The notes under the pieces were generated by a model. That model searched no databases, was not told the DNA's origin, and was given only the letters and a program-made list of their open reading frames with translations. Position numbers and translations under genes: made by a program. Positions 9,179 through 28,018 of a DNA stretch of 32,512 nt are shown here, piece after piece. This stretch comes from a virus, in the IMG/VR virus record IMGVR_UViG_3300012930_000010, positions 1 to 32,512 of that record; one strand, given 5' to 3'. Positions within the stretch are counted from its first letter, which is position 1. Every line of letters begins with the position of its first letter.

Positions 9179-9180
9179 AG

Positions 9181-9228
9181 TTAGCGGCAACTTTTCCTCT
9201 CGCGCGGCTTCTCCGGAGTTGCCGCTAA
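9181..9228. promoter_or_regulatory. 11-bp perfect inverted repeat (TTAGCGGCAAC / GTTGCCGCTAA, 26-nt spacer) abutting the helicase start codon
   Basis: Arms at 9181..9191 and 9218..9228. In the minus-strand mRNA the stem closes 2 nt before the ATG, and the purine-rich AGAGGAAAAG sits in the loop. Confidence 0.6.
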
Positions 9229-9522: not shown

Positions 9523-10935
9523 CTAGTTCGGCCCCACGGTCACTTCGTCTTCGGTCATGTACGCGCGCGCGTCCGCCAGCACTTCGTGCCAGCGCGGATC
9601 TTCCACCAACAGTTTTAATACGGGATCCTGCGAAAAAAACTGCGTGATGGTTTGCTCGGGATAGTTCACCAGGTCCTTGGCGAGATCCGGCTTCACGTCT
9701 TCGAGAAACGTGGCGATGGCGGAACCGCTCGCGCCGTAGCGCATCATGTTCACCACTTGCACCTTCATCCCTTCGTCGTATTGCTCCTGCGAGACGGGAG
9801 CTGGCGCGGGCTGCGCCGCGGGCATCACTTCGACGGCCGGTGCGGATGCGGCGCCGTCGCGCGGCTCCAAATGCAATCCGCCTTCGACATGAATCGCTGG
9901 CGCTGGCGGAGCGGCGGCGGCCGGTTGCGCTGCTGGCTGTGCTTGCGGCTGCTGTCGGTCGATCGGCACAACCCGCAACGCTTCCGCAGTGCGTGCCCGG
10001 GCCTGCGCTTCGTTCGCGCGGGCTTGCGCCACGTTCGCCGGCGACGTTTGTTTGAACGTGTCGAGAATATCCGGCAAGTGCTGCGTGACGGCCTGCACCG
10101 CCGCGGCTTTCCAATCTTTCGGCTCTCCGCCGCCGTTACCACGAATTTTTTCCACCACTTCGAAGATGGCGGAAAGTTTTGTCAGCTCTTCCAAGGGGTT
10201 CGGAGGATTCAGCAACTTTTCGACGAGCTTCGCAATGAGCGCATCGCCGAGCGAACCTAAGCCGCCGCCGGCAGCCGGCGCGCGCAGATTCGCGAGTTTC
10301 TCCGCCGCCGAGAGCAGAGCATTCACTTGCGCCGTTGGGTCCGCGGCGACCGGAGTTTGTTTCGTGACGATCTCCATCGCGCGTTCGCTGGCCTTCGTGA
10401 GCATATCGATGACGTGCTCCGAGCCGTTGGATTGTCCCTGATTCGATTCCCTGCTGCGTTGCAGTTCTTCGCGCAGCACGGAGATAAATTCTTTCTGGAA
10501 GTCCGCGTTCCCGCCAAGGCCGTTGCCATTGCCGTTGGTCGTTGCCGGCGGGATCTCGCGGCTGCGGTCATAGATCGGATCGCCTTCGATGTCAAAATTG
10601 TGCGTCTTGAAATAGTGGCCGTTCTTGCAGAGGTCCATGCGGAATTTTCCGCCGCCCCAGCGCTTCTTCACGTCGGCATACGTGATCGGCGCGAAGAACG
10701 TCCAGAGATAACCCTTCGATCCGGCGACGCCAGGCACTTTCGGTTCCAGGCGTTGGAGCTCGAGGTGATAAATTTTCTCCCACTCATTGCCGGGAATCTT
10801 CATCAAGTCGCTGATAAACCAGCCCGGCTCTTTTTCTTCACGCTCTAGCGGCTTTTCCGGCTCCGCTGGCGTCTCGGGATTCTGCGGAGCGAGATTGATG
10901 ACGGTCGTTGGCTGCGTCTGCAGGCGTTTTGGCAC
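9523..10935 (-). CDS. Large hypothetical protein, 470 aa, with Ala/Pro/Gln-rich low-complexity middle regions
   Basis: Long ORF with a GTG start at 10935, the first gene of the leftward arm. No motif I can name (...RWGGGKFRMDLCKNGHYF...). Confidence 0.7.
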   Translation of the reverse strand: MPKRLQTQPTTVINLAPQNPETPAEPEKPLEREEKEPGWFISDLMKIPGNEWEKIYHLELQRLEPKVPGVAGSKGYLWTFFAPITYADVKKRWGGGKFRMDLCKNGHYFKTHNFDIEGDPIYDRSREIPPATTNGNGNGLGGNADFQKEFISVLREELQRSRESNQGQSNGSEHVIDMLTKASERAMEIVTKQTPVAADPTAQVNALLSAAEKLANLRAPAAGGGLGSLGDALIAKLVEKLLNPPNPLEELTKLSAIFEVVEKIRGNGGGEPKDWKAAAVQAVTQHLPDILDTFKQTSPANVAQARANEAQARARTAEALRVVPIDRQQPQAQPAAQPAAAAPPAPAIHVEGGLHLEPRDGAASAPAVEVMPAAQPAPAPVSQEQYDEGMKVQVVNMMRYGASGSAIATFLEDVKPDLAKDLVNYPEQTITQFFSQDPVLKLLVEDPRWHEVLADARAYMTEDEVTVGPN

Positions 10936-11229: not shown

Positions 11230-12264
11230 ATGAAGCTCACACGCATTCCGCATCTCGAAGGCGATCCGGGAGTTCAGCAGACTATCCGGCAGATGTGCCG
11301 GCTGATCGCCAAGGGCAAACAGGATCCGCAAGTTCACGAACTCGCGGCGCAGATTCTCCGCTGCGCGCGAGTGGCGGCCTACGATTGGACCGGCGAAGCG
11401 GAAGCCATCTTTCATTGGTGGCACAAGAACATTCGCTTCACGCGCGACGTGGACGGCCACGAGACGCTGCACGCGCCGGCGGACATCTTGCGGCTGGGGA
11501 TCGGCGACTGCGACGACTTTACGGTGGGAATTTGCTCGCTGCTGAAAACCATCGGCGCGGATTGCCACATCGTGACGATCGCTGTGGATCCCGAGGGCGA
11601 GTTCTCGCACGTGTATCCGGAAGTGATTTTGCCCAGCGGCCGCTCGATCGCACTGGACGCGGCGCGGCAATCCGCGGCATTCGGGAAATCTCCGGAGCGT
11701 TGGACGCGCAAACGGATCTGGTCTGTGGATTCCGGGGAGTACGCTGACATGGGCCGCCTCGGCAGACTTTCTTCTTTGGGCGACGGCCGTCAAAGCATCG
11801 CACCAGGCCAAGGACCGCAGGGCGCCTGGCGCGCCAATGTCTATCCGCCATTCCGCGTCGCTGCTCGCGAAATGACTGGCAGCTACCTCAGCGCTTTTCC
11901 CGTCGCGCCCCCACACCAACAATTCAAGCGGCCGCCGATTGGCTTTGGAAATTACGGCGTGCCGGCCGCGCGTCGCGCACTCGCGGATTTCAGTCGCGGC
12001 GATCTGCGCCGAACGCTCGGCGACGTTGATTGGGGCGCCATCACGCAAGCGATCACCGCCGGCACCACCGGAGCGGCGAACATCATCACTGCGGAGCGCG
12101 CTTCGCCGTACAACTTAGTTCCCACCACGTCGATGGCGCAGGGTGCGCGTTCTCCAATCCTGCCTCTGACTCAGGTCGCCGCATCGCCATTCGGTTCGAT
12201 CAGCCCGACGATGATTCTGCTCGGGCTCGGCGCCGTCGCGTTGATCGCCGCGGAGAGGCGCTGA
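11230..12264 (+). CDS. Transglutaminase-like (papain-fold Cys protease superfamily) protein with a C-terminal TM anchor, 344 aa
   Basis: GIGDCDDFTVGICSLL (Cys), FSHVYPEV (His), ALD (Asp). DMGRLGRLSSLGDG motif. C-terminal ISPTMILLGLGAVALIAAERR. Confidence 0.75.
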   Translation: MKLTRIPHLEGDPGVQQTIRQMCRLIAKGKQDPQVHELAAQILRCARVAAYDWTGEAEAIFHWWHKNIRFTRDVDGHETLHAPADILRLGIGDCDDFTVGICSLLKTIGADCHIVTIAVDPEGEFSHVYPEVILPSGRSIALDAARQSAAFGKSPERWTRKRIWSVDSGEYADMGRLGRLSSLGDGRQSIAPGQGPQGAWRANVYPPFRVAAREMTGSYLSAFPVAPPHQQFKRPPIGFGNYGVPAARRALADFSRGDLRRTLGDVDWGAITQAITAGTTGAANIITAERASPYNLVPTTSMAQGARSPILPLTQVAASPFGSISPTMILLGLGAVALIAAERR

Positions 12265-13006: not shown

Positions 13007-13690
13007 ATGTACTTGATGGATTCCAGCGCGCCGGCAGTGAGCAACACGAAGTGGCGTCTTCGCGGCATGGGCCGCCTCGGACTCTCTCCGGTGCGTTTGC
13101 CGAATCTCGGCGCATCGAGCACTGCGCAAAGCTGGCGCATGCGCGGGCTTCGCGGACTGGGCCGTCTCGGCGACGCCGGCAATTGCGTCTACTACGGCGC
13201 CGATGGCGTCACCGTTGAGTCGATCGACACTAACACCGACGTGGTGGAGTGCGCGGGCAACGGCGGCGCCTGGAACGCTGTACCGATTTTGAATATGCCA
13301 GTGATTCCTGGCGTGCAAAATCCGAGTCCGGTTGCTGGCAGCGCTTCGAACGGCCGCATCACTACGGTGCCGGCCACAACTCCTTCGAATAATCCGCTCG
13401 ACTATAGATCACCGCAAGAAGCCATCGCGGCCAACTTGGATCCCAATGCAGTGATGGCGGCCTGGACGAAAGCGCTCGCGCGTTTTCCAAGTCCACAAGC
13501 GGCCATCTCCGCGGGCGTTCCTCCTGGTGTCGTGAATCAACTTTGGCAGCAGAGCCAGGTGAACGCCGCAAACACCGCCGCGGCTTCGAAAGGATCGCTT
13601 TTCGGGTCTGGAACTCTCGGTTACGTAGCGATGGGGGCCACCGCATTATTGCTTCTCTCCGCTCTGGCCGGCGGAAAGGGACGGCGCTAA
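13007..13690 (+). CDS. Tail-anchored membrane protein, 227 aa, motif-family member
   Basis: MYLMDSSAPAVSNTKWRLRGMGRLG...MRGLRGLGRLGD... C-terminal LGYVAMGATALLLLSALAGGKGRR. An alternative ATG lies at 13016. Confidence 0.75.
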   Translation: MYLMDSSAPAVSNTKWRLRGMGRLGLSPVRLPNLGASSTAQSWRMRGLRGLGRLGDAGNCVYYGADGVTVESIDTNTDVVECAGNGGAWNAVPILNMPVIPGVQNPSPVAGSASNGRITTVPATTPSNNPLDYRSPQEAIAANLDPNAVMAAWTKALARFPSPQAAISAGVPPGVVNQLWQQSQVNAANTAAASKGSLFGSGTLGYVAMGATALLLLSALAGGKGRR

Positions 13691-14017
13691 ATGTACGTCA
13701 CCGATAGCGGATGCCCCACCGGCTACTTTCCCATCAACACAAAATGGGGAGGGACTTCTACGCTGAGCGGAATTTTGCCGGGTGGCGGCCTGCGCGCGCT
13801 GGGTTATTTCCGGCCAAACTTCGCGATGGCGCGCGGCATGTATCCAGGCGGCGGGCATTCCTGGAATTCGATGGGCCAACTGGAAGTCGATCCGACGATT
13901 CTGGGTTTGGGAATCGGCGCTCTGGCGCTCGGCGTGTTTCTGTTGGGAAGAAAACATCCGAAGAGGTCGCGCCGCCGCGGCCGTGGGCGGCTACGCAGAG
14001 CACTTGCGGAGAGTTGA
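13691..14017 (+). CDS. Small tail-anchored membrane protein, 108 aa, motif-family member
   Basis: ATG directly after the TAA. MYVTDSGCPTGYFPINTKWGG...GLRALG...SMGQLE. TM ILGLGIGALALGVFLLG followed by an Arg-rich tail. Confidence 0.7.
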   Translation: MYVTDSGCPTGYFPINTKWGGTSTLSGILPGGGLRALGYFRPNFAMARGMYPGGGHSWNSMGQLEVDPTILGLGIGALALGVFLLGRKHPKRSRRRGRGRLRRALAES

Positions 14018-14039: not shown

Positions 14040-14153
14040 CTATTTCTTGGCAGTCGAGGAGTTTCGAAGCCATCGCTCAATCTGCATCCCTGCATAGATT
14101 ATGGATGGTACCAGAACAAAAATTATCAGCACCGCCCACATGCGCACTGTCAT
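14040..14153 (-). CDS. Possible antisense micro-gene: 37-aa hydrophobic peptide MTVRMWAVLIIFVLVPSIIYAGMQIERWLRNSSTAKK
   Basis: ATG at 14153 preceded by AGGTAAGGA. It fills a 165-bp lower-GC gap in the plus-strand operon. The competing plus-strand ORF 14025..14180 has lower GC3. Confidence 0.3.
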   Translation of the reverse strand: MTVRMWAVLIIFVLVPSIIYAGMQIERWLRNSSTAKK

Positions 14154-14182
14154 GTCCTTACCTCTCTGGGGGAAATCTAGTC

Positions 14183-14899
14183 GTGTATCTACTCCCCAAT
14201 TCGGCTGCTGTCAATAACCGCAAGTGGAATCTCGGGCGGATGGGCTGCAACTGCTCTTCGCGCGGCATTGGCGTGCCGCCACAGAAGCGTATGGGCCAAC
14301 TCGGCGATACTCCGGGCGTTCCCGCGGGGACTGTTCTCGCCTACACCGCGAGCTGGAAAGACTCTCCGCTTCAAATCAACACTCCCGATGCGGTGCAAGC
14401 CACGATCCAGGCGAACCTGGCGCAGCAATACGGCATCGTCATCGACAATCAGGTCCACTCGCAGAGCGACTATCTACATTTCAGCGGTCCGCAGAGCATG
14501 ACCTTGCAGGTGCACACCACGAGCGACTACGGCGCTCCTGGCGACATTCAATCGCTCATCGATGGCGCGATCTACGCCGCTACAAATGCCCACGTAGCGC
14601 AAGGCATGCCTTCCTCCACGATTCGCATCGTGCAAGCGGCCGCGCCTGGTCAAGTATCTCTGACTGCGCAATTGCCGGCCAGCACCAACGCCGCATTTAT
14701 GGCCGCCCAAGCCGGCTACGATGACGCGGTGGCACGTGGCGACATGGCCAGTGCCGCTCAGTTTGCCGCGCAGATCCAAAACATTACAGGCACCAACCCG
14801 TCCGGTGCGGGCGCCGGCGTCATGGCGTGGCTCTCGAACAATTGGGTATGGCTTGCTGCTGGCGGCGTCGGACTGGTCGTCGTGAAGGAGCTGCTGTGA
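14183..14899 (+). CDS. Tail-anchored membrane protein, 238 aa, motif-family member
   Basis: GTG at 14183 with GGGGGA upstream. (M)YLLPNSAAVNNRKWNLGRMG...KRMGQLGD has an N-terminus homologous to 13007. C-terminal WVWLAAGGVGLVVVKELL. Confidence 0.7.
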   Translation: MYLLPNSAAVNNRKWNLGRMGCNCSSRGIGVPPQKRMGQLGDTPGVPAGTVLAYTASWKDSPLQINTPDAVQATIQANLAQQYGIVIDNQVHSQSDYLHFSGPQSMTLQVHTTSDYGAPGDIQSLIDGAIYAATNAHVAQGMPSSTIRIVQAAAPGQVSLTAQLPASTNAAFMAAQAGYDDAVARGDMASAAQFAAQIQNITGTNPSGAGAGVMAWLSNNWVWLAAGGVGLVVVKELL

Positions 14900-15510: not shown

Positions 15511-16418
15511 GCGCGCTAGCCACAATGCGACTGCAAAACCCCGCGCGCGGCAAACGTAAGGCTCCCGTTTCCGGGGCGCGCGGGAAGAGAAATGTTGGCG
15601 AGCTGCTCATCTTCGGCAACCCGCGCCGGAAAGGCGCGTCTGGAAATAAGTCGAAAGGTTTCGGCAATCACAAGCCCGGATGCCCGTGCAAATTCTGCGA
15701 TCGAGCGGCGAAGCTGCAAAGCGGGGAGCTGAAACCGCCGAAGCTGCCAAACCGCAAGAAGAAAAACTCCAAGAAGCTCGACGCCCAGCGTGGAGCTCGA
15801 GAGCGCTCCAGCCGGATCCGTACGGCGCGCCTCAATCCGAAAAAGAAACAGAAGAGATCCACGCGCGGCCGAAGACGTGCGGACCGGCGCAACAATCCCA
15901 GCGAAACGAAACAAGCGGTGCGGCTCTTCCAGGGCTTCCACGGTCACGATCCCAAAGAGATCGCGGAGAAGCACGTCTCCGCCGCGGTGCGCCTCGATTA
16001 CACCGCCCTGGGCGACCTGAAGTACCTGGTGGTGGAAACGCCGCTCGGCAAAGAAGCGACGTTCACCTTCGAGGATGACGGCGTGAAGCTGGCGAGCTCG
16101 CCGGATGGCAAACAGCTCTACTGCATCGGCGGCGACCAGAACATTTTGCCGCTGCTCGATGAACGTTCGCGAGAAAAAGATTTCATCGATCTGGGCGACG
16201 GCCTCGAGGTCGCGTATCTGGCGCGCAAAGTCCACGGAGAATTCCGCCCCGTCGAGTACTTCCACGAATTCGGGGAACTGAACGGCGCGCACCCGCGGCT
16301 GATGTTCGACAAGCTGCGCAAAAACATTTTCTTTATCGGCGGCGACTACTTCATCGACGTGAACATGCGCGCGCCAGGCACGCCGCTCGGCAAAGTTTCG
16401 CCGGGCATCGAAAACTGA
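15507..16418 (+). CDS. Protein with a highly basic N-terminal ~130 aa (repeated basic-NP motifs) and a conserved-looking C-terminal domain, 303 aa
   Basis: GTG at 15507 (GTGA overlap) or ATG at 15525. LQNPARGKRK, FGNPRRKG, RLNPKKKQKR, RRNNPSETKQAVRLFQGFHG...YFHEFGE...FFIGGDYFID... Confidence 0.7.
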   Translation: MSALATMRLQNPARGKRKAPVSGARGKRNVGELLIFGNPRRKGASGNKSKGFGNHKPGCPCKFCDRAAKLQSGELKPPKLPNRKKKNSKKLDAQRGARERSSRIRTARLNPKKKQKRSTRGRRRADRRNNPSETKQAVRLFQGFHGHDPKEIAEKHVSAAVRLDYTALGDLKYLVVETPLGKEATFTFEDDGVKLASSPDGKQLYCIGGDQNILPLLDERSREKDFIDLGDGLEVAYLARKVHGEFRPVEYFHEFGELNGAHPRLMFDKLRKNIFFIGGDYFIDVNMRAPGTPLGKVSPGIEN

Positions 16419-16602: not shown

Positions 16603-17487
16603 ATGTACGGCACACCACAATTCGCGCAGCGAGGGCCAGGCACCTATCTAACGGGTGCGCCGCTCTCGCGTTCACCGCGTCGGCGGTTGCGGCGCTTCTC
16701 CGGATTCGGCTCGCTGACTCCGGACCAGGCCACGGAACAAATCTTTCCGGCGGCGCAGGTGAGGAGCGGAGCGGGACACAACCAATCGATACGCGACCAA
16801 ATCCTGCAATCCGCGAATGCCGGCCAGATCCTCAATGCCCAGGGCTCGCCAGCGTACATGCCGGGGACGGGCCAATGCTCCGGCGCGAGTCTACTGAAGC
16901 CGGCGATCACCGGAACGGTGGGGAGTCTGGCACTGCACTTTGCTCCGCAAGCCTTTGCGGCCGGGCCGATCGTAGGCGGCATCGTCGTGGGCATTGCGGC
17001 AATCAGCGAACTGTTTACCGTGATCTTCGGCCATCACGCCGCAGCTATCAAGAAAGAGCAGAGCGTCCTTTGCGCGGCGACGCCGGCGGCCAATCAATCG
17101 CTTCAGCTGATCGACCAGGCGGTGCAGCAGGGGCAGGCCACTCCGCAGGACGCCATCACGGCGCTGGGCAACGTGGTGTCCGGCTTTCAGCAAGCCGTCG
17201 CGTCGATCATTCATGGCGCCAACCCGATGTCCAGCGGCGAATGCAACGCGGCGTGCGTGATTCTCTCCGAACTGCGCGCCATCGTGCTGCTGAAGCAATC
17301 GCAGTATCAGGATCTCGCCGCGCAGCAGTCCACCAACCCGGTAGGCGCAGCGCTCGCGCCAGTTACAGCCGCGTTCGCGCCGGTCAGCCAGGCGGTGCAA
17401 TCGGTGCAAGCGGCCGCCGCGTCCGCGGGCTTGCCCGCGTGGCTGGTGCCGGCTGCGGGATTTTTTCTTTTGTGGAAGTTGCTGTAG
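16603..17487 (+). CDS. Membrane protein, 294 aa, motif-family member
   Basis: MYGTPQFAQRG...RRLRRFSGFGSL... Internal TM AAGPIVGGIVVGIAAISELFTVIF and C-terminal LPAWLVPAAGFFLLWKLL. The overlapping track ORF 16521..17495 is an Arg-rich shadow frame. Confidence 0.75.
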   Translation: MYGTPQFAQRGPGTYLTGAPLSRSPRRRLRRFSGFGSLTPDQATEQIFPAAQVRSGAGHNQSIRDQILQSANAGQILNAQGSPAYMPGTGQCSGASLLKPAITGTVGSLALHFAPQAFAAGPIVGGIVVGIAAISELFTVIFGHHAAAIKKEQSVLCAATPAANQSLQLIDQAVQQGQATPQDAITALGNVVSGFQQAVASIIHGANPMSSGECNAACVILSELRAIVLLKQSQYQDLAAQQSTNPVGAALAPVTAAFAPVSQAVQSVQAAAASAGLPAWLVPAAGFFLLWKLL

Positions 17488-17551: not shown

Positions 17552-17565
17552 GGAGAAGCAAAAAT

Positions 17566-18297
17566 ATGAGCACAACGCAACTCACGATGACGCCGGCGGA
17601 CCTCTTCAAGTACCAGAATGATTTGGTGCGCACCGGGAAACATTTGCCGCTGGGCCGCATGCGCACCATCGCGGTGGGGCCGTGCGACACCTACAAGCCT
17701 CCGGCGGACGATCCCATCATCAGCGGCTACGGATCGCAGCCGCAGCGCAACGCCCGCGGCCGCATGCTGGATTTCAGCGGTCAATGGTTGCCGATCGCCC
17801 AGGCCGCGGACAAGTCCATGATCCTGGTCACTGCGCCGCTGATTCGCAAAGACGGCTACGTGGGATTGCCAGACCTGGTGGATCCGCTGTGGCGCGCCGC
17901 CGACTACACCGAAGAAGAAGCCGCGAATCCCGATTGCGATGCGGACTGCCGCAAGCAGTGGGACATCACGCGGACAGGCGAAAAAGTTCAGCACGTGCAC
18001 ATTCAACTGCGCGCCGGCAAAGACACGCCGCGCATGATTCCGCAGCGCCTGGAAGACCGCACCAACGATAGGCTGCAGGGCACAAACTTTCTCGTCTTTC
18101 AACCCGTGCTGCGCATCACCTACCAACCGGAAGAACTGAAAGCCGGCGACCAGCACAGCTTCAAGCCCGCGGAGTGGAAAATCGAATTTCGTCCGGACAT
18201 GGGAGGAGTGCACGCGGCATTCCTGGTGGATCCCACAAACGGCGAGTGTCACTTTTTTGGCGGCGTCCCGATTTTCGGAGGCGACACCAAGGGGTAG
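17566..18297 (+). CDS. Hypothetical structural-arm protein, 243 aa
   Basis: ATG with AAGGAGA upstream; clean ORF; no recognisable motif. Confidence 0.75.
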   Translation: MSTTQLTMTPADLFKYQNDLVRTGKHLPLGRMRTIAVGPCDTYKPPADDPIISGYGSQPQRNARGRMLDFSGQWLPIAQAADKSMILVTAPLIRKDGYVGLPDLVDPLWRAADYTEEEAANPDCDADCRKQWDITRTGEKVQHVHIQLRAGKDTPRMIPQRLEDRTNDRLQGTNFLVFQPVLRITYQPEELKAGDQHSFKPAEWKIEFRPDMGGVHAAFLVDPTNGECHFFGGVPIFGGDTKG

Positions 18298-19347: not shown

Positions 19348-19419
19348 GACTTGGTTTGCAGGCACTGGCAGCCGCGATCCGGCGCCGGAACTTAGATCAC
19401 AGAAAGCGAGAATTCGAAA

Positions 19420-20187
19420 ATGAGAAACTTCGAAGCCGCCGGACGCGCAGGCAAGAGTCATCGCCACGTTCGGCGCATGGAGAAAATCAGTTCGTACGAG
19501 CTAGGCAGGCCCCACGCGCCGCGGTTGCGGAATCCCAACACGGGCATTCCGGAATTCGTGGTGTGGAGTCTGTTCGATATTTACGCCGTCGCTGCCGGCG
19601 GCACGATGGGCAAGCTGTCGCTCTACACCGTGCAGCAGGGCGCCAACTACAACTTCAACGGCGTGACCGCGTTCGCGAAAGGCGAGCAGCACGTTTCGCT
19701 GGTGCAGCCTGGCCAGCTCGAATCGAGCTACACGTTCATCGTGCGCGCGCTCTCCGTCTACGTGCAGGGTCAGCAGGGCACCGCGCATCCCGCGGTGCAT
19801 CGTGAAGATCTCGAAAACCTGCTGGGCTCGCTGGTGAAGTTCCGCATCAACAAAAAAGAATACTTCATCGGCATTCCGGCATGGCTGCCCGGAGGCGGCG
19901 GCCAGGTGACGCTGGGCTTCGGCTCGCTCACCGTGCCCACCGCCAGCTTCACCAACACCAACGGCTGGCAGGAGACCGATAACGTCTACGCGCTTCCCGG
20001 CGGGCAGTACATCAATCCGCAGGAAACGTTTGACTGCATCATCGATCCATCCACCAACGCGCTCGTTGGCGGCGGCACCGGCGCTCCCACCGCGCTGGCC
20101 GCGGCCGGCTTCCCCACTGGCGTACCCGCCGCGGGACTCTGCGCGTGGTTCCGCCAGGATGGGCAACTGATTCGCGTCGCGCAGTAG
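19420..20187 (+). CDS. Beta-rich protein, candidate major capsid protein, 255 aa (alternative start 19477)
   Basis: ...YTFIVRALSVYVQG...LVKFRINKKEYFIGIPAWLPGGGG...ETFDCIIDP...LCAWFRQDGQLIRVAQ. Alternating beta pattern, followed by a hairpin. The functional call is inference only. Confidence 0.6.
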   Translation: MRNFEAAGRAGKSHRHVRRMEKISSYELGRPHAPRLRNPNTGIPEFVVWSLFDIYAVAAGGTMGKLSLYTVQQGANYNFNGVTAFAKGEQHVSLVQPGQLESSYTFIVRALSVYVQGQQGTAHPAVHREDLENLLGSLVKFRINKKEYFIGIPAWLPGGGGQVTLGFGSLTVPTASFTNTNGWQETDNVYALPGGQYINPQETFDCIIDPSTNALVGGGTGAPTALAAAGFPTGVPAAGLCAWFRQDGQLIRVAQ

Positions 20188-20232
20188 AGCTGGAACGTCG
20201 CGAGTTGAAGTCCTTTGGACAGGACACCTGCG

Positions 20233-20273
20233 AGGGTCCGGATTGAATGGGGATAGGGCAAGCCGGACCCTTT
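20233..20273 (+). terminator. Terminator/attenuator-like hairpin after the putative capsid gene (AGGGTCCGG ... CCGGACCCT, 21-nt loop, then TTT)
   Basis: 9-bp perfect GC-rich stem with a short T-tract. Confidence 0.35.
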
Positions 20274-20313
20274 GCAGACTCACTTCTTTAGAAACGAAAT
20301 TTTGGGGGATGCC

Positions 20314-20616
20314 ATGCAAGCAGGCAATCGCGTGATGGTTTATGACAGTCCGGGTTTTCCGGTGGATCACTATCTATACGCCACGGTGCTAACGCCATCC
20401 GATGCCGGCGCGCTGGTCATCGTCGATCATCCGGGGAATCTCGCGCATGGCGTGCAGCGCTTCGTGCCCGCCAACAAAATTCTCACCGCCGTCGACGTGA
20501 AGAAGAAAGCGGACGGTCTCCGGGCGGAGCTCGCCCAGCAGCGCGATGCGGACAAGCGCAAAACCTTGATGGACCACATCAAGGGCTTCGAGTTCATGGC
20601 CGAGCAGTTGGCGTAA
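20314..20616 (+). CDS. Small hypothetical protein, 100 aa
   Basis: ATG at 20314 with GGGGGA upstream. MQAGNRVMVYDSPGFPVDHYLYATVL..., with a helical C-terminus. Confidence 0.65.
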   Translation: MQAGNRVMVYDSPGFPVDHYLYATVLTPSDAGALVIVDHPGNLAHGVQRFVPANKILTAVDVKKKADGLRAELAQQRDADKRKTLMDHIKGFEFMAEQLA

Positions 20617-20649
20617 GCGTAGCGAAGAAAAAAACGAGGGAGAAATGTC

Positions 20650-21135
20650 ATGACTCAGACTTGTCAAGCTTGCCGGGGAAACGCGATCGTCGCCACGCCC
20701 TCGGGAGGCGTCATAAAGTGTCCTGTCTGCCAGGGCATAGGGCAAATTTCCGGCGACCTGACCGACCAGCTTTTCTGGTATTTGTTTTCGCCGGCGCAGC
20801 TCAGCGCCAACCAGCAAGGCGTTTTGAACACCATCACGGTGGACAACGACGCGGATTTCCGCATTCGCTGGCTGATCGTGAGTTCCACCGGGCTCTTCAG
20901 CGTGGAGATCAAGGATCTCTATGCCGGCGGCGCTCCCTGGATGCCCACGCCCGTCAACGGGGAAAACTTTGCCGGCACCGCGCAGTTGCCCTTCGTGCTG
21001 CCAAAGCCTTACCCGGTTTACAAAGGCTCGTCGCTGCAGGCGAAGTTCAACGACCGCAGTGGCGCGCCCAACACGATTCAGCTCTGCTTGGTGGGCTACA
21101 AGATCGACAAGCTGCCCTCCGGCCCGAGCAACTGA
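20650..21135 (+). CDS. DnaJ-type zinc finger (CxxCxG...CxxCxGxG) fused to a beta-sandwich domain, 161 aa
   Basis: GAGGGAGA upstream. TCQACRGNA...KCPVCQGIGQ, then DADFRIRWLIVSSTGLFSVEIKD...FAGTAQLPFVLPKPYPVYKGSSLQAKFNDRSGAPNTIQLCLVGYK. Confidence 0.75.
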   Translation: MTQTCQACRGNAIVATPSGGVIKCPVCQGIGQISGDLTDQLFWYLFSPAQLSANQQGVLNTITVDNDADFRIRWLIVSSTGLFSVEIKDLYAGGAPWMPTPVNGENFAGTAQLPFVLPKPYPVYKGSSLQAKFNDRSGAPNTIQLCLVGYKIDKLPSGPSN

Positions 21136-21214
21136 ACGACGTGGACCGGCCGAACGTTTGTGTAGGGCCGCATGAGTACGAAGCTGTCAGTACCTGCATC
21201 GGGAAAATCTTCGA

Positions 21215-21811
21215 ATGCAGGAATTGCTGGAACTGGACGCGGAAACAGCCGGCACGCCAGTTTCTAAAGTTTCAGGCGGGCAAGCGGCTGACCAGGAGAT
21301 CCACACGACGATGATTCCTGCACAGCCAACGCCGGCCGATCCCATCGCGCAGCTTCTCACCTACCGCAGTTTTTACGGCAGCGAAGATCATCTGCCACTC
21401 GAAGCGCTGCTCGATGAGATCGACGCCATCGTGCCCTATTGGTTTCCGCTTTACGATTCCGCTACTTCTCTGCCCTCCGGCTCGCTCGGCGCGCAGCAGA
21501 CTGACCGCGGCCAGGTGATTGCCCAGGAAGATTGCTGGATCTGGTCGCTGATCGCCAGCGCGAGCGTTGCCGGAAATAGTTTCGTGGTGCAGCTCTTTGA
21601 CACCGAGCGCGAAATAACTTTCATGGACGAAGACGTGTTCGTAGGCAACGCGGCCGGCACAGCGCTTCGCCAATTCTTTTTGAAGTCTCCGATCCATATT
21701 CCCATCGGCGGGCAAATCGAATCGCGTGTCATCAACCTGGCGGCTGTGGCCAACGCCATCCAGATTATCGGTTTCGGCGTGCGGCCGGATTCGCGAAAGA
21801 AGATCACCTAG
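21215..21811 (+). CDS. Beta-sandwich protein, paralogue of the C-terminal domain of 20650..21135, 198 aa (alternative start 21311)
   Basis: QEDCWIWSLIASASVAGNSFVVQLFDTERE...NAAGTALRQFFLKSPIHIPIGGQIESRVINLAAVANAIQIIGFGVR aligns position-for-position with the 20650 protein. Confidence 0.7.
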   Translation: MQELLELDAETAGTPVSKVSGGQAADQEIHTTMIPAQPTPADPIAQLLTYRSFYGSEDHLPLEALLDEIDAIVPYWFPLYDSATSLPSGSLGAQQTDRGQVIAQEDCWIWSLIASASVAGNSFVVQLFDTEREITFMDEDVFVGNAAGTALRQFFLKSPIHIPIGGQIESRVINLAAVANAIQIIGFGVRPDSRKKIT

Positions 21812-21828
21812 GGGAAAGGAAACGGGTT

Positions 21829-21861
21829 TCAGGGTTTGTACTTACAAACCCTGACATAAAA
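21829..21861 (+). repeat. TACTTR-loop hairpin element, copy D (TCAGGGTTTG-TACTTA-CAAACCCTGA cat AAAAA)
   Basis: Perfect 10-bp stem. The A-run abuts the ATG at 21862, with no Shine-Dalgarno. Confidence 0.8.
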
Positions 21862-22392
21862 ATGTCCACAATGTCACCCACAGTCTTCCAGGGCCGCCGC
21901 TTCGTGAAGAAGCCCAATAGCGCGATCCTCACGCCTTCCTGCGCCGTCACCGTGCCGCAGCTCCCGGTGCAGAACTTCATGCCGCCAGGCGGCAAGCCGT
22001 TTGAGTTTGCAGCCGGCGTGGCGCTGCCGGCGATCGGCGCGACGGTCACGGTGCTGAGCTTCACCGTGCCGCGCGGCCAAAACGGTTTCGTCCGGCGCAT
22101 CGCCAACGTGTTCGTGGGCGGCGGCTTCACGGATTTTTCCGGCTCGATCGTGTGGCAAATTCTGCTGGACCAGGTGAAGAACGTGGTCGCTCCGGGCTTT
22201 GACAATATCGTGGCATCACTCGGCGCGGTTTCGAATCCATCGAACATCGACGGGATCCACGTGATGGAGAATTCCACCGTCGCCCTGATCGTGAAAAACA
22301 TTTCGGTGGTCGTGAGCGGCCAACTGATTGGTGGCCGTCTCGGTGGTTCGTTCCACCCAGTTCCGCAGGAACCGCCGAACCTCGCGTTCTGA
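21862..22392 (+). CDS. Beta-rich structural-like protein, 176 aa
   Basis: ...TVTVLSFTVPRGQNGFVRRIANVFVGGGF...IVWQILLD...GIHVMENSTVALIVKNISVVVSGQLIGGRLGG. Looser resemblance to the two upstream paralogues. Confidence 0.7.
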   Translation: MSTMSPTVFQGRRFVKKPNSAILTPSCAVTVPQLPVQNFMPPGGKPFEFAAGVALPAIGATVTVLSFTVPRGQNGFVRRIANVFVGGGFTDFSGSIVWQILLDQVKNVVAPGFDNIVASLGAVSNPSNIDGIHVMENSTVALIVKNISVVVSGQLIGGRLGGSFHPVPQEPPNLAF

Positions 22393-22402
22393 TTTTGTAG
22401 AG

Positions 22403-22434
22403 GCCGGGGCTTCAGCCCGGCATGGGATAACAAA
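22403..22434 (+). repeat. Diverged hairpin (GCCGGG-gcttcag-CCCGGC, then atgggATAACAAAA) in the same post-stop, pre-ATG position as the TACTTR elements
   Basis: The 3' arm CAGCCCGGC and the ATAACAAAA tail resemble copy E, but the loop differs. Confidence 0.4.
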
Positions 22435-23913
22435 ATGGCAGACCGATTCAAAAGCGGTGACCCGGTAAAGGTGATGCTCTCGAAAAAGCACACTCTCGCG
22501 GCCGACGATGAGATGGTGGAGCACGCGGCAAAATTCGTGCGCTATCTCCCCGATGAATGGGCCGAAGTGGAGCTCGACTCGCATCACTCGATCGATGCCG
22601 GCCGCAAAGTGTTCACCCTCAGCGTGCCGATCTCGCAGCTCGTCGCCGCAGTGCTTCTGCTCTTCCTGTTCGTGGCGCCAGCCAACGCGCAGTTTCTCGG
22701 TTACACTTCGCCGCAAACCGTCAACGCAAAAGTATTCAGCGGACAAACCACCGCGGCGGTCACTCCGTCCAGCTTCGTAAACAATTGTGCCCCCACCAAC
22801 GGCGCGCCGTGCTCCATCCCTAACATCGGCCAGAGCATCCATTCGGTGACCTACAGCATTTCGAGCCCCTGCACCGTTGGTTTCTTTATGGACCTGCGCC
22901 TGGAGGCGTCCAACGACGGCACGAATTGGTTTTCGATTTCGCAAGACGGCACGGACCAAAACAGCGGTTCGGTGCAAGGTTCCAGCAGCGCTGGACTGAC
23001 TGCGATCGGCTCGTATGCCGGCTATCGCCTGAATCTCGTCTCGATCTCTTGCCTGAATGGCGGCACACCGTCGGTCACCGCGTTTTATTCCGGCACGTCG
23101 ACGTCGGCGCCCGCGCCTGCGGACCTTTTCTATCAAAGCAACCCGTACCGCAAGCTGATCCTGCAAAATCAGCCGACGACGAACGCCGTCACGCAGCCGG
23201 CCGTCACCATCGGCGCGCCCAACGGCAACACTGCCGGCGCGCTTTATATTTCGTGCTTCATCGCCGCGAACGGCTCCACCACTTCGTGCCCCGCTGCCAT
23301 GACCGTCACCGTGACGGGCTTCATTGCGTTCGGCGCATCGATCGGCGGCGGCGGTGGGGGTAACATCACGTCGGGATTCAATGTCTACGGCATCAATCCC
23401 ACCGTCGCGCCCGTCACGCAGATTTTCAGTGTGCCGGCGATCAGCATGACCTTTAGTTTCGGCGGCACGGGCACCGCCGGCGTGAGCTGGTCGATCTACT
23501 ACCTCTCGAACTCCACTCCGAGTTCCAATTTCGTCGCCGATCCATGCGCCACTTCCGGCAGCGTGAAGAAAAACGTCTCGATAAATATCACCACCGGCGC
23601 CACCACGTTGCTCGTGCTGGGCGTCGTCCAGCAAACGACTTACGTTTGCGAAATAACGCTGGACATGACTGCCACGGCTGCGACCGCCGATACAATTTTC
23701 TTCGAGCAAGGGTCTGGCGCGACCTGCACCGCACCAGCAGTTCTCTCGGGAACGTTCAGCAGTGGTTTACTTTCTGCTGGCGCCACCGTCATTCCGATTG
23801 GGAGCGGCACTTCCACAATCTTAAGTGGAACGACGGGCTTCAGTCTCTGCGCGGTGAGTGCAGTGGGAACGACGCCGAATATCGCGCTGCATTTCGTCTA
23901 CGTGCAGCAGTGA
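22435..23913 (+). CDS. Large beta-rich Ser/Thr/Gly-rich protein with an internal signal-anchor, 492 aa (spike or fibre-like)
   Basis: N-terminal ~65-aa soluble domain, then LVAAVLLLFLFVAPANA-QF, then ~400 aa of beta-rich, low-charge sequence. Confidence 0.75.
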   Translation: MADRFKSGDPVKVMLSKKHTLAADDEMVEHAAKFVRYLPDEWAEVELDSHHSIDAGRKVFTLSVPISQLVAAVLLLFLFVAPANAQFLGYTSPQTVNAKVFSGQTTAAVTPSSFVNNCAPTNGAPCSIPNIGQSIHSVTYSISSPCTVGFFMDLRLEASNDGTNWFSISQDGTDQNSGSVQGSSSAGLTAIGSYAGYRLNLVSISCLNGGTPSVTAFYSGTSTSAPAPADLFYQSNPYRKLILQNQPTTNAVTQPAVTIGAPNGNTAGALYISCFIAANGSTTSCPAAMTVTVTGFIAFGASIGGGGGGNITSGFNVYGINPTVAPVTQIFSVPAISMTFSFGGTGTAGVSWSIYYLSNSTPSSNFVADPCATSGSVKKNVSINITTGATTLLVLGVVQQTTYVCEITLDMTATAATADTIFFEQGSGATCTAPAVLSGTFSSGLLSAGATVIPIGSGTSTILSGTTGFSLCAVSAVGTTPNIALHFVYVQQ

Positions 23914-23927
23914 CCGGGGGGAGACCC

Positions 23928-26333
23928 ATGCTTGGGAGATGCATCGTTCGCCACCGGATAGCGCTAGTCATCCTCTTTTTTTTCGCGCTGAGTCATCTGG
24001 TCGATTGGGGACCGTTCAACCTGCTGGTGACTTTCGCGCAGACCACGCAGGTTACCGGCCAGGTGAAAGACGTGAACGGCATCCCGTACGCCGGCGCGTC
24101 GATGCGAGCTGGCCTGGTGTTCGCTGGCACGCCGGTCAGCAATCCCACCGTCACGATCAGCACGCTTTCGCAGTGCCGCGCCAACGGCTTCGGCTCCGCG
24201 CCCTGCCAGGTGCCGTTTAATCCCAGCAACGGACCCTTCACGCTCGACGGCACCGGAAACATTCCCGGCGGCGGCATCACGCTGCAAGACAATGCGCTGG
24301 TGACGCCCGCGGGAACGCAGTGGGCTTTCTCGGTCAGCACCCCCGGCGCACCGCCGCCCCTCGGCACCGGTCCACAAACGTGCAGCTCCACGCTGACGGT
24401 CACCGGCGCTTCGCAATCGGTTTCCCCTAGTTTCATCGCTTGCCCCGCGCTCAGTACGGCCAGTGCCGCAACGGGAGGACTAGTCTCCGTAACAGGCGTT
24501 TACCTTAGCCCTAGTTGTATAGGTAACACACCGCCTTGCATTAATATCCCCACCGGCGGCGGATGCTACACAGGCACCAACCCGCAGGGAGGCACCGGGC
24601 CGCAGACCAGCAACTCTAGCGGATTGATCACCTTTAGCAGTGGCTTCCCGACGAATCCACCGCCGCAGATCGGGCAACTTGCTTGGGTCATGCAGATCCC
24701 TCCGAGCTCCGCCGCGAGCATGGGGAATTTTTGCGACACTCAGTACAACGCGAACATCGAGAGCCTGAACTACGTCGAAACCGTTTTGTGTGGCAACACG
24801 TTTCAGAACGGCGGGCTCCCTATAACGATCACGGCCATCAACCCCGGCGTGTCCCTCACGCTCTCGCGCAACTGCAACAGCACCCAAAACGGGACGAATG
24901 CCATCCTCTTCTACGCGCCGAATATCTATTCGCAGATGGTCCTCGCCTGCGAGAACCTCGTTGGCGGGGTCGCCCTTGGCGGGGTGAACGTTCATCTCGC
25001 TCTAGGACTCTACTCGTTGGACAACACTGGAAACGGGACGCAAAGCGCCTGCGGATGCGTGCAGCTCGTCGGCTGCACTCCGAACACCTATGTAAACGGC
25101 GGATTGAGCGGTGAGAACGTCGGCCTGACGCAGATCTATACGCCGCCCTGGTACAACCACAACGGCGACCTGGGGACAATCTTGGCTGGCGGGAACGTCC
25201 ATGACATTTTAATAGATGGGCAATGGGTTAACATCGCAGCCGCTGGAAATCACGGAACTGTTTGGGATGGGACCGGCTGCGGGTCGTACAACTTTGCCAT
25301 CGTTGGCTACAATCTCGCGGGCGCAGGCGGCGTCTCCGAAACGATTTATGCCAATAGCAGCGTGAGCCCGTTGACCAACTCGTGTGAGATGCGTAACTTC
25401 TACATCGCCACCGCCGACAGCGCACTTGCTTTGCAAGGTGGCGGTGGGACTGGCACGCAAGGCAACTTTCAAAATGCAGTGATCATTTCACGGAACCCGG
25501 CTTTTATATGCCCCTTTGCCGCCTCTGGTAACGGAACGTACAATATCAATGGGGGATACTATAGCTCGTCCGGGCGCAACCGCGCGGGGGGAACGGGCGG
25601 CGTGATCGCCTGCCCGGAAGATTCGCAAAACCCTACCGGCGACAAATTCATCATCAGCAACGCGGCCCTTTGCATGACCAACGGGACGAACATCCCGGCT
25701 ATTAATTTCACCGAAACGTCCGGCTCGGTTGTCCTGAACAACGTCACCGTTAACTCTTCTCCGTCTTGCACTCCTGGCGCCAACGCTGGAGGGATCACCA
25801 CAGCCAGCGGAGTCACCGTCCAGATGGAGCAAAGCACGATTAAAGCCACCGGGACGGGCAACACGGTCAACAATCCGGCAGGCGCAACGTTCTTCGACGG
25901 CATCAACAATACTTTTTCTGGTGGAGCTGGCTATACCGGCGCGGGTGTGCTGAACGCCGATGCTCACGCCGTCAAAGGTTCCTGCACCGGCACGGTGACG
26001 GCCTCTTCCACGCTGGGGCTCTATGGGACCGGTCCGAATGAAACGCTCACCCCTTGCACGTCGGCGGCGATCGGCACCGGGCTGGTCGTCAGCGGCGCCC
26101 GCACTTTGTTTGCGCTGAACTGCACGGCATCCGCGGCGGGGATCTCCGCTTCCGATGTCTGCATCGTCTTGCAGAATGGCGCCAACGTCGGAAGCTGCTC
26201 GCTCAATGCGGTGACTACCTGCACCGCAGCTCTAAACGTCGCACTAGCCGATGGTGACCGCATCTCTCTTGAAATCACCACCGGTGTGGCCGACACGCTG
26301 GCCAACGTCAAAGCTATCGCGGACTGGAACTAA
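23928..26333 (+). CDS. Large receptor-binding/spike-like protein, 801 aa: N-terminal TM or signal, Ig/carboxypeptidase-regulatory-like segment, Gly/Asn/Thr-rich beta-helix-like body
   Basis: ATG at 23928 with GGGGGA upstream; the track start at 23544 overlaps the previous gene out of frame. RIALVILFFFALSHLV, VTGQVKDVNGIPYAGASMRAG, then repetitive GxNxT-type strands. Confidence 0.75.
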   Translation: MLGRCIVRHRIALVILFFFALSHLVDWGPFNLLVTFAQTTQVTGQVKDVNGIPYAGASMRAGLVFAGTPVSNPTVTISTLSQCRANGFGSAPCQVPFNPSNGPFTLDGTGNIPGGGITLQDNALVTPAGTQWAFSVSTPGAPPPLGTGPQTCSSTLTVTGASQSVSPSFIACPALSTASAATGGLVSVTGVYLSPSCIGNTPPCINIPTGGGCYTGTNPQGGTGPQTSNSSGLITFSSGFPTNPPPQIGQLAWVMQIPPSSAASMGNFCDTQYNANIESLNYVETVLCGNTFQNGGLPITITAINPGVSLTLSRNCNSTQNGTNAILFYAPNIYSQMVLACENLVGGVALGGVNVHLALGLYSLDNTGNGTQSACGCVQLVGCTPNTYVNGGLSGENVGLTQIYTPPWYNHNGDLGTILAGGNVHDILIDGQWVNIAAAGNHGTVWDGTGCGSYNFAIVGYNLAGAGGVSETIYANSSVSPLTNSCEMRNFYIATADSALALQGGGGTGTQGNFQNAVIISRNPAFICPFAASGNGTYNINGGYYSSSGRNRAGGTGGVIACPEDSQNPTGDKFIISNAALCMTNGTNIPAINFTETSGSVVLNNVTVNSSPSCTPGANAGGITTASGVTVQMEQSTIKATGTGNTVNNPAGATFFDGINNTFSGGAGYTGAGVLNADAHAVKGSCTGTVTASSTLGLYGTGPNETLTPCTSAAIGTGLVVSGARTLFALNCTASAAGISASDVCIVLQNGANVGSCSLNAVTTCTAALNVALADGDRISLEITTGVADTLANVKAIADWN

Positions 26334-27155: not shown

Positions 27156-27449
27156 ATGGCTCTCGCCCGCTACTCCGCAAAAATCGATTCCGACAATCGC
27201 GTGCGCGTGATCCACATCTTCGTGGGCGATAGCGAGAGCGCCGTCGACGCTGCCCAGCAAAAACACGCCGATGGCTGCAAAGCCTACGGCCCGGCCGTCA
27301 AAGAAGAAAAAACCATCGACATCGACGTGGAAGTGGACGACCTGCCGGAAGGCGACGAAGAGTCCCTGCTGGAATTTCTGGAGATCGATCCCGGCGATGA
27401 ACCCGAAACCGCCGATGACGATGACGACGACGAAGAGGACGACGAATGA
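27156..27449 (+). CDS. Small acidic protein with a poly-Asp/Glu tail, 97 aa
   Basis: ATG at 27156 with GGAAAGAG upstream. MALARYSAKIDSDNRVRVIHIFVGD...ETADDDDDDEEDDE. Confidence 0.65.
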   Translation: MALARYSAKIDSDNRVRVIHIFVGDSESAVDAAQQKHADGCKAYGPAVKEEKTIDIDVEVDDLPEGDEESLLEFLEIDPGDEPETADDDDDDEEDDE

Positions 27450-28018
27450 GGCGGCCGATGCGGCCAACTCGGCGGCTCGGCGATCTTGGGCTGCTCTCGC
27501 CCGCGGACATCCAGGTGTACGCAGCGAACGCCGGCTTCTCCGGACAGGATCTGGCGACGGCCGTGGCCATCGCGCTGGCGGAAAGTTTTCCCTCCGGCAA
27601 TCCGAACAGCTACAACCCGGAAACGAAAGCTGCCGGCGGCACTCCGCAGGGGCAAGGCTCGTATGGCCTCTGGCAAATTTATTTGAAGAAGCATCCGGAG
27701 TTCGCCGGCGCCAATCTCTACGATCCGCAGACCAACGCGAACGCCGCGTATTCCATTTATTCGCGCCGCGGCGGCTTCTCCGATTGGTCCACCTACACCA
27801 GCGGCGACTATGCGCAGTACCTTCCCTCGATCCCGCCGGCATCATCTGTTCCGTTGACGCTCGACGCCAGCACCGGCCAGCCGATCGACGACTCGACTCC
27901 CACTCCCCTGCTCACTCCCGCGCAAGCAAATCTTTTGTCCGCCGCATCCTCCAATCCGCTTTACGCCGCAGTGGCTCTCGGCGTCGGCGCCGCGATCCTC
28001 TGGGACGTGCTCTCGTGA
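27446..28018 (+). CDS. Lysozyme-like lytic transglycosylase with an N-terminal RRLGDLGLL motif and a C-terminal TM anchor, 190 aa
   Basis: ATGA overlap. AIALAES (catalytic Glu context), SYGLWQI, AAYSIY. C-terminal LYAAVALGVGAAILWDVLS. Confidence 0.7.
   Translation: MRRPMRPTRRLGDLGLLSPADIQVYAANAGFSGQDLATAVAIALAESFPSGNPNSYNPETKAAGGTPQGQGSYGLWQIYLKKHPEFAGANLYDPQTNANAAYSIYSRRGGFSDWSTYTSGDYAQYLPSIPPASSVPLTLDASTGQPIDDSTPTPLLTPAQANLLSAASSNPLYAAVALGVGAAILWDVLS

Follow-up and report, generated by a model that had tools for sequence, protein, structure and literature searches.

Genes of the predicted structural region

The region considered here, positions 19420 to 26333, lies in the rightward gene arm of a 32,512-base window (the whole stretch of DNA analysed) with an overall composition of about 60% G+C. 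Because its ends share an exact 123-bp repeat, found by end-to-end comparison, the window is a complete genome of 32,389 bp that was assembled as a circle (IMGVR_UViG_3300012930_000010), and related contigs have repeatedly been assembled at 30–34 kb. The genes are arranged in two arms, a leftward early arm (~0.8–10.9 kb) and a rightward late arm (11.2–31.7 kb), and the gene map matches public gene calls for identical contigs. This includes the last large gene of the region, the true start of which is at 23928, behind the previous stop codon, and not at 23544. Taken together, the analyses described below indicate that the region is probably the core of the virion-building module in the ~32.4-kb circular double-stranded DNA (dsDNA) genome of an uncultured, tailless bacterial virus. 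The features of the region, together with the terminal repeat, are as follows.

1..123, no strand: direct terminal repeat, identical copy at 32390–32512
19420..20187, plus strand: predicted major capsid protein, 255 amino acids (AlphaFold2 model, Foldseek, conservation)
20234..20270, plus strand: GC-rich stem-loop, GGGTCCGG...CCGGACCC, directly 3' of the capsid gene
20272..20616, plus strand: small gene, 114 amino acids, no assigned function, mobile position within the family
20650..21135, plus strand: paralogue A, 161 amino acids, N-terminal CxxC...CxxC zinc ribbon, then a jelly-roll domain of ~115 residues
21215..21811, plus strand: paralogue B, jelly-roll, an open reading frame of 198 amino acids, or 166 from an alternative ATG near 21311
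21862..22392, plus strand: conserved core structural protein, 176 amino acids, candidate vertex or minor capsid protein, orthologues in all relatives
22435..23913, plus strand: variable host-recognition spike candidate, 492 amino acids, transmembrane residues 64–80 and a Ser/Thr/Gly-rich outer part
23928..26333, plus strand: variable spike or receptor-binding candidate, 801 amino acids, transmembrane or signal segment at residues 11–27

A predicted single jelly-roll capsid protein

The 255-residue product of 19420–20187, which a preliminary description of this DNA had recognised as beta-rich, models as a jelly-roll of about ten strands and one helix, preceded by a disordered, basic N-terminal arm (residues 1–38; AlphaFold2 with an alignment of 72 sequences, predicted local distance difference score (pLDDT) 75.6, predicted TM-score (pTM) 0.70). 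The top neighbours of this model in the PDB, as found with Foldseek, are the capsid chains of the archaeal virus SPV1 (6oj0; E value (E) 1.5e-3, probability 0.99, TM-score ~0.3), and further neighbours include the capsid proteins of satellite panicum mosaic virus (SPMV), PBCV-1 and SGIV as well as VP17 of P23-77, the last being a weak match (E 1.8e-2). Searches of BFVD returned 36 matches below 1e-3, nearly all of them to capsid proteins of small DNA or RNA viruses; the best-superposing of these neighbours, I1ZBH9, has 211 residues, the length of gp46 of Salisaeta phage SSIP-1. Not one HK97 protein occurs among the 50 PDB and 50 BFVD neighbours. The TM-scores of these superpositions (0.3–0.45) give the fold class and not the family, and the family profile has no match among PDB sequences. 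The 19420 protein is predicted to be a capsid protein made of one jelly-roll behind a basic arm. It is also the most conserved of the late proteins, with 119 homologue clusters at identities of at least 47%, most of which are found on contigs of 30–34 kb.

The attenuator-like hairpin that had been reported behind this gene is present on the plus strand at 20234–20270, but is not significant when the window is considered alone (z -1.16). A strong hairpin (z -2.9 to -5.8) does occupy the equivalent position in seven of eight related genomes, with a different sequence in each, and an expression signal that is conserved in position behind the capsid gene is counted here in favour of the proposed reading of the region. 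No T-run terminator was found at the hairpin, and the stem-loop is a possible attenuator or mRNA stabiliser. The small gene that follows (20272–20616) stands behind the capsid gene in the window and in the related contig L001 only; in three other relatives (L002, L004 and L011) its homologue lies several kb upstream, ahead of the gene corresponding to 15525, so this gene has moved within the family.

A pair of jelly-roll paralogues

The C-terminal domain of the 20650 protein and the 21215 protein had been described as paralogues from shared motifs, and comparison of the two families bears this out (hhalign probability 97.3%, E 1.7e-11, 109 columns). The direct BLASTP match between the two proteins is weak (E 2e-4), and orthologues connect both families transitively; on these profile comparisons they are true paralogues. 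The 20650 protein has a weak Pfam match to the Anti-TRAP zinc ribbon and is 51% identical to the N-terminal domain of P0153, a fused protein from a relative, while orthologues of the 21215 type (37–41% identical) align with the C-terminal domain of the same protein. The alternative ATG near 21311 is the start chosen by other gene callers, and cluster members of 166 residues exist.

A search with the paralogue profile yielded 165 relatives in three size classes, in addition to natural fusions of 280–295 residues in which a complete 21215-type protein follows a 20650-type domain. In contig L016, for example, the capsid gene is followed by a single-domain paralogue, a fused two-domain gene and a 21862-like gene. 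The number of paralogue-domain copies varies from one in a group of elements of 13–14 kb (see below) to two in the window and three in L003, L010 and L016. Because both types are fused in one chain in relatives, the 20650 and 21215 proteins would be expected to act as a pair; together they may form lattice capsomers, vertices or spikes.

The AlphaFold2 model of fused P0153 consists of two sandwiches of 7–8 strands with a disordered linker (pLDDT 73.6), and its pTM of 0.50 leaves the relative orientation of the two domains uncertain. Its Foldseek neighbours are PNGase F-type glycanases, peptidylglycine hydroxylating monooxygenase (PHM), botulinum HA70, SID1, the STIV capsid protein (E 1.5e-3, but with a TM-score of only ~0.2–0.3) and XepA, and there are no HK97 proteins among them. 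The PNGase F and PHM families are cellular tandem (double) jelly-roll proteins, and XepA is a neighbour of the SPV1 capsid protein (Krupovic et al., PMC8812541). As with the capsid family, PDB sequences gave no match with the paralogue family profile.

The preliminary description had also counted the 21862 protein as a looser relative of this pair, a relationship that did not survive profile comparison: kinship with the 20650/21215 or capsid families is undetectable (hhalign probability <2%). The same threshold led to the rejection of the 21862, 17566 and 15525 proteins as remote paralogues of the capsid protein or of 20650. The 21862 family, which likewise has no match among PDB sequences, is nonetheless represented by orthologues in all relatives, the 13–14 kb group included (E 5e-15).

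A homologue of a virion protein of phage SSIP-1

The family profiles of the window were searched against the proteins of SSIP-1 (JN880423), an icosahedral phage that lacks a tail and has an internal membrane (PMC6356626, PMC6260650), T=49 geometry and a circular 44-kb genome (PMC6356626, PMC6260650, PMC4958249), for which reviews describe two types of capsid protein, each a single beta-barrel (PMC6356626, PMC4958249). The clearest match involves the gene at the start of the late arm.

11230..12264, plus strand: tail-anchored transglutaminase-core protein (Pfam Transglut_core 6e-7; C-terminal transmembrane segment 324–340)

The hidden Markov model (HMM) of the 11230 family matches SSIP-1 gp34 with an E of 2e-20, and BLASTP aligns the two proteins at 32% identity over 124 residues (E 3e-17). 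Furthermore, gp34 has the same architecture as the 11230 protein, a transglutaminase core and a C-terminal membrane anchor, and on sequence grounds the 11230 protein is clearly a homologue of this SSIP-1 virion protein. A second, suggestive link connects the jelly-roll paralogues with virion protein gp47 (hhalign E 4.4e-4, probability 34%), with which they have NGEN and LP.P...G.K motifs in common; the gp47 gene is located directly behind those of gp45 and gp46, which are paralogous and capsid-sized and correspond to the two capsid protein types of the reviews. Counterparts of gp40, gp43 and the SSIP-1 integrase were not found in the window, and searches of the phage and IMG/VR collections with SSIP-1 proteins returned no relatives.

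The window and SSIP-1 have in common a circular dsDNA genome, a late arm full of proteins without database matches and a gp34-type protein. SSIP-1 differs in its length (43.8 kb) and in encoding an integrase, a 2319-residue structural protein and a separate virion ATPase of the AAA_25 family (gp40). It is also the virus of a halophile, whereas the window family is known from metagenome assemblies.

Other late-arm proteins

Outside the core region and the 11230 gene, the late arm contains the following features.

13007..13690, 13691..14017 and 14105..14899, plus strand: three paralogous tail-anchored membrane proteins (family HMMs cross-match)
15525..16418, plus strand: conserved late gene in all 32-kb relatives, basic N-terminal half and globular domain
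16603..17487, plus strand: conserved late gene in all 32-kb relatives, membrane protein with C-terminal anchor
17566..18297, plus strand: conserved late gene in all 32-kb relatives, 243 amino acids
18402..19247, plus strand: polybasic protein (52 K/R versus 5 D/E; 24 K/R in residues 1–60), then Gly-rich hydrophobic segments
27446..28018, plus strand: lytic transglycosylase-like enzyme with C-terminal anchor (Pfam SLT_3 5e-20; transmembrane segment 174–190)

The gene for the polybasic protein is always found immediately upstream of the capsid gene, in the 13–14 kb group as well, and its product is a candidate for a DNA-condensing link between genome and membrane. The C-terminal parts of the 17566 and 15525 proteins are weakly related (hhalign 74%, E 2.7e-5, 77 columns) and would constitute a second paralogous pair in the structural module.

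A hydropathy scan located six C-terminal anchors, in the proteins encoded at 11230, 13007, 13691, 14105, 16603 and 27446. Tail-anchored membrane proteins are therefore present, as had been proposed, though in smaller number than the eight or more first counted; five or six other late-arm membrane proteins are anchored elsewhere than at the C-terminus, with segments near the N-termini of the 22435, 23928 and 26656 proteins and also in 28760 and 29234. Of two muralytic enzymes counted in the preliminary description, the anchored SLT_3 protein at 27446 stands, and SLT genes are found at the equivalent place in relatives; the other, the 11230 protein, has a transglutaminase core and may be a cysteine protease. 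A motif, LGR[LMF]G, occurs in the 11230 protein itself (residue 174) and in the 13007 (residues 21 and 51) and 14105 (residue 43) proteins. In the paralogous tail-anchored proteins it lies near the N-terminus, often after basic residues or W-x, and it recurs in the orthologues of L001, L003, L004, L009, L010 and L011. It could be a processing or docking site, with the 11230 protein as a candidate protease.

The two large proteins at the end of the region have predicted transmembrane segments near the N-terminus, in agreement with the preliminary description, and lie within the part of the genome that varies most among relatives. An orthologue of the 22435 protein was found only in L001, the closest relative, and counterparts of the 23928 protein range from 764 to 1397 residues. 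Neither the 22435 protein (searched against Pfam, PHROGs and PDB) nor the 23928 protein (profile search of PDB) gave a match. Because both are membrane-anchored and fast-evolving, they are likely to be host-recognition spikes. Several add-on domains occur in the spike regions of relatives, namely Ig-like ASH/HYDIN domains, SBBP repeats and a GDSL-lipase-like domain (L009 18434–20689, L010 17042–20562, L016 12894–15704), a variety that fits rapid swapping of host-recognition modules.

No recognisable tailed-phage genes or dedicated packaging ATPase

About 44 candidate genes of the window were compared with Pfam, most late-arm proteins (those from 11230 to 26333 and three downstream) with PHROGs, and ten late proteins with NCBIfam. 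As the preliminary description had stated, none of the candidates matched a terminase, portal, tail, HK97 or FtsK/HerA protein in these searches, and the ten proteins had no NCBIfam match at all. The window contains no tape-measure-like or tube-like gene and no long helical open reading frame of the tape-measure kind. A six-frame scan for Walker-A motifs gave a single match in a real gene, that of the replicative helicase, which upholds the earlier view that this protein is the sole P-loop NTPase. Only four proteins exceed 400 residues: the two variable membrane-anchored proteins described above and two encoded in the early arm.

7706..9190, minus strand: DnaB-type replicative helicase, sole P-loop NTPase (Pfam DnaB 2.7e-23, AAA_25 5e-19)
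9523..10935, minus strand: conserved 470-residue protein, N-terminal domain with an RYGGGxFR...I.G.P motif, low-complexity linker and C-terminal helical domain

The second of these was considered as a cryptic terminase or portal protein and rejected, as its P-loop-like stretch, GVAGSKG, is not conserved (it is deleted in two relatives) and the protein consists of two small domains; it has no match in Pfam, PHROGs or PDB.

Neither the window nor the late arms of nine relatives revealed a dedicated packaging ATPase, of the FtsK-HerA type or otherwise, and this lack is likely to be real. It is less unusual among such viruses than the preliminary description had supposed, since SPV1 and FLiP are likewise without a packaging ATPase (PMC8812541). 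In SPV1 the genome is coated with protein and enclosed within the membrane (PMC8459092).

The alternative that best withstands the evidence, though we consider it unlikely, is that the virus is a tailless jelly-roll virus with active packaging, in which the AAA_25 domain of the 7706–9190 protein, or a host enzyme, serves as the motor; the apparent lack of a packaging ATPase would then be one of annotation only. SSIP-1 gp40 (L017 24775–25737), which is annotated as structural and nothing more, contains a Walker A motif and a Pfam AAA_25 domain (5e-11), and it aligns with the window helicase over 171 residues (22% identity, E 6e-4), a stretch that spans Walker A, Walker B and a later motif. The packaging enzyme of SSIP-1 is likely to be this RecA/DnaB-like protein and not one of the FtsK-HerA type. 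The 7706–9190 protein, however, possesses a clear DnaB N-terminal domain and is encoded in the early leftward arm beside replication and modification genes; because of this domain and this position we argue that its role is in replication. In addition, the 13–14 kb relatives share the structural core but show no P-loop protein on the contigs seen, and the two polybasic proteins encoded near the capsid gene fit condensation of the genome better than active packaging.

An unnamed family

A filter-free profile search of 1.84 billion representatives placed the capsid protein in a family of 266 clusters at 50% identity, 71 of them below 1e-10, with lengths of 180–300 residues. The distant members align with the window family at an hhalign probability of 100%, and 50 distant homologues had no match in Pfam or PHROGs. 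GenBank phages gave no match by megablast (late arm) or tblastn (capsid protein and 20650), and in IMG/VR only two loci matched the capsid profile and none the profile of the 190-residue subgroup. The family is found in metagenome assemblies from JGI, ENA, NCBI and SRA-derived (Logan) sources. Two relatives with the same gene order as the window lie inside very long contigs, L012 (ENA ERZ25039538 contig_1979, 1264932–1285711 of 4,512,595 bp) and L003 (JGI Ga0533580_0000039, 110452–131249 of 240,334 bp, mid-contig), and for this reason appear to be integrated proviruses.

One subgroup of relatives consists of elements of 13–14 kb with capsid proteins of ~190 residues and a Rep_1 rolling-circle initiator. 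They have the gene order of the window, with an 18402-like polybasic gene, the capsid gene, one 20650-like gene (E 3e-7 over the full domain) and a 21862-like gene, and the N-terminal domain of the 9523 protein (E 4e-8) is encoded downstream of these structural genes on the same strand. Because these elements share the core but carry Rep_1, a five-gene structural core has been joined to very different replication modules. Tandem genes for 155-residue proteins in L014 (6451–6923 and 6937–7409; 77% DNA identity) and a collagen-like repeat protein in the 13–14 kb elements may likewise point to duplication of genes in the structural arm.

With regard to the host, the SLT_3 peptidoglycan enzyme points to a bacterium. 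A scan of genome collections recovered two contigs in metagenome-assembled genomes, both of Dormibacterota type, and members of the family have been binned with such genomes from several bacterial phyla, although bins are unreliable for circular contigs of ~31 kb. Literature searches found no description of this family, and the two newly described kinds of element that surfaced, IME1 of Dehalococcoides and the Charybdis elements, are distinct from it. The family is a large lineage without a name in databases, and its only cultured distant relative is SSIP-1.

Remaining features of the genome

In addition to the helicase and the 470-residue protein, the early arm has genes for a D12 adenine methylase, a cytosine-methylase-like protein, an ASCH protein and a DUF7352 protein. 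A DUF5131 (phage Gp37/Gp68-like) gene on the minus strand, 31762–32439, continues into positions 1 to ~300; it crosses the junction of the circle, which makes it look truncated in the linear window. The interval 5000–7730, between the early genes and the helicase, has poor coding signal, with G+C falling to 0.52 at 7–8 kb, and holds only short repeats and palindromes. It may contain a replication origin or regulatory elements. No Rfam match was found in this interval or elsewhere in the window, a tRNA search of the window found no genes, and a scan for promoter and terminator consensus sequences gave sites no more frequent than expected by chance.

Proposed virion architecture and alternative interpretations

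The reading of the region as part of a tailless, membrane-containing virus is supported by computation only, through fold predictions, the comparison of related genomes and a firm homology to one cultured phage that is tailless and contains a membrane. Every test run pointed towards a jelly-roll membrane virus and away from a tailed phage, as the preliminary description had proposed. From the predicted proteins we infer an icosahedral shell and an internal membrane. In such a virion the protein shell would overlie a lipid membrane studded with tail-anchored proteins, as in SSIP-1, SPV1 and PRD1-type viruses, and the circular genome would be condensed by the polybasic 18402 and 15525 proteins and the basic arm of the capsid protein. 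As in SPV1, the genome would be enclosed while membrane and shell assemble around it, and not pumped into a preformed shell. Exit of the progeny could then be aided by the anchored SLT enzyme and by small membrane proteins encoded at 26.6–30 kb.

Several points weigh against this reading. The particle is predicted from its genes, and the structure models cover two proteins, 19420 and fused P0153, both with moderate confidence. The Foldseek TM-scores are low (0.3–0.45), and the domain orientation in the fused model is uncertain. Beyond gp34 the links to SSIP-1 are weak, as is evident from the modest hhalign probability for gp47 and from the match of the capsid profile to gp45 and gp46, which is not significant (E 0.014). 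Assembly without ATP-driven packaging is less certain, given that the window helicase shares the AAA_25 domain, and a detectable alignment, with the SSIP-1 virion ATPase. Finally, the absence of a P-loop motif from the 13–14 kb contigs is to be read with the reservation that these contigs may be incomplete.

Next to active packaging, and also improbable, stands the interpretation that the window is an enveloped, pleomorphic or vesicle-forming element, comparable to plasmaviruses, pleolipoviruses or vesicle-forming plasmids, in which the jelly-roll proteins would be spikes or carbohydrate binders. About a dozen late-arm membrane proteins and the lack of a packaging ATPase would suit such an element, as would the integration of some relatives in chromosomes, and the fused paralogue model is as close to PNGase F-type glycanases and botulinum HA70 as to capsid proteins. 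On the other hand, the neighbours of the 255-residue model are overwhelmingly capsid proteins, of which the basic N-terminal arm is typical; a homologue of a virion protein from an icosahedral phage is present; and the muralytic enzyme and holin-like proteins suggest lysis and not budding.

That the window is a tailed phage with capsid, portal, terminase and tail genes too divergent to be recognised is very improbable. Most late genes are without any database match and structure models cover few of the late proteins, which leaves some room for this interpretation. However, none of the hallmarks of Caudoviricetes (HK97 capsid, large terminase, portal and tail genes) was found in the window, the best-conserved late protein models as a jelly-roll and not as HK97, and one late protein has a homologue among the virion proteins of a tailless phage. 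In addition, of the four proteins of more than 400 residues one is the helicase, two are the variable membrane-anchored proteins and the last, 9523, consists of two small domains on a low-complexity linker and lacks a conserved P-loop, and there is no gene resembling a tape measure or tube. Least credible of all is a satellite or defective element (of the PICI, P4-like or PLE kinds, for example) that depends on a helper phage for capsid or packaging functions. No packaging enzyme is recognisable and few family contigs are flagged as viral in IMG/VR, but the window itself encodes capsid candidates, spikes, a lysis enzyme and a replicative helicase. Pfam searches found no integrase, satellite marker or helper-interference gene in it, and relatives from many samples agree in genome size and gene order.

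Comparison with known tailless viruses

The proposed tailless, membrane-containing virus can be compared with several established groups. With SPV1 (Portogloboviridae) it shares circular dsDNA, a match to the jelly-roll capsid protein (6oj0) and the lack of a packaging ATPase (PMC8812541), and SPV1 is known to have single jelly-roll shell proteins over an inner membrane and a protein-condensed genome (PMC8459092). The two differ in that SPV1 has an archaeal (Sulfolobales) host and a genome of 20 kb without replication proteins, whereas the window encodes an SLT enzyme and its own helicase; there is no sequence similarity between them, and the structural match is weak (TM-score ~0.3). Homologues of the SPV1 proteins VP1, VP4 and VP10 were not recovered, although the profile search behind this covered PDB sequences with the capsid family and no search was aimed at the nucleoprotein VP1. 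The window displays the portoglobovirus combination of a predicted single jelly-roll capsid, a circular dsDNA genome and no packaging ATPase, though with a weak fold match.

The Helvetiavirae of the realm Singelaviria (Thermus phage P23-77 and the haloarchaeal SH1 and HHIV-2) are also tailless viruses with an internal membrane and adjacent single jelly-roll genes. In these viruses a conserved FtsK-HerA packaging ATPase gene adjoins the capsid genes (PMC8812541), which is absent from the window, and sequence similarity is lacking. The window has three predicted jelly-roll proteins (19420, 20650 and 21215) compared with the two vertical single jelly-roll major capsid proteins of Helvetiavirae, and the match to VP17 is, as noted above, weak.

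Tectiviridae (PRD1), Corticoviridae (PM2) and FLiP resemble the window in the virion plan proposed here and in having a late operon that includes membrane proteins and a muralytic enzyme. FLiP shares the lack of a packaging ATPase (PMC8812541), and relatives of the window encode a fused protein with two jelly-rolls. In contrast to double jelly-roll viruses, the domains are encoded by separate genes in the window, and its most conserved capsid candidate is a single jelly-roll. The case for the fused protein of the relatives as a double jelly-roll of the capsid type is limited by the pTM of its model (0.50) and by TM-scores of only ~0.2–0.3.

Implications

Tailless, membrane-containing phages are rarely isolated, and standard virus-detection pipelines miss most of them because the usual marker genes are absent. 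The capsid and paralogue profiles obtained here can be used at once as markers for such viruses in other data. The group also provides relatives for SSIP-1, until now an orphan isolate, and is best regarded as a large new lineage within a known kind of virus.

The origin of jelly-roll capsids, of double jelly-rolls and of packaging ATPases is still debated, and the window family bears on this debate with one structural core that is combined with differing replication modules and with a jelly-roll gene caught both unfused and fused. A more specific proposal, which we put forward tentatively and regard as open to considerable doubt, is that these viruses are bacterial counterparts of the portogloboviruses at the rank of family or higher, with a single jelly-roll shell, a membrane, a genome condensed by polybasic proteins and no motor, extending from 13–14 kb Rep genomes to 32-kb DnaB genomes and carrying the small jelly-roll in one, two or three copies or in fused form. 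If this were true, the family would represent a living series for the emergence of the double jelly-roll from single ones.

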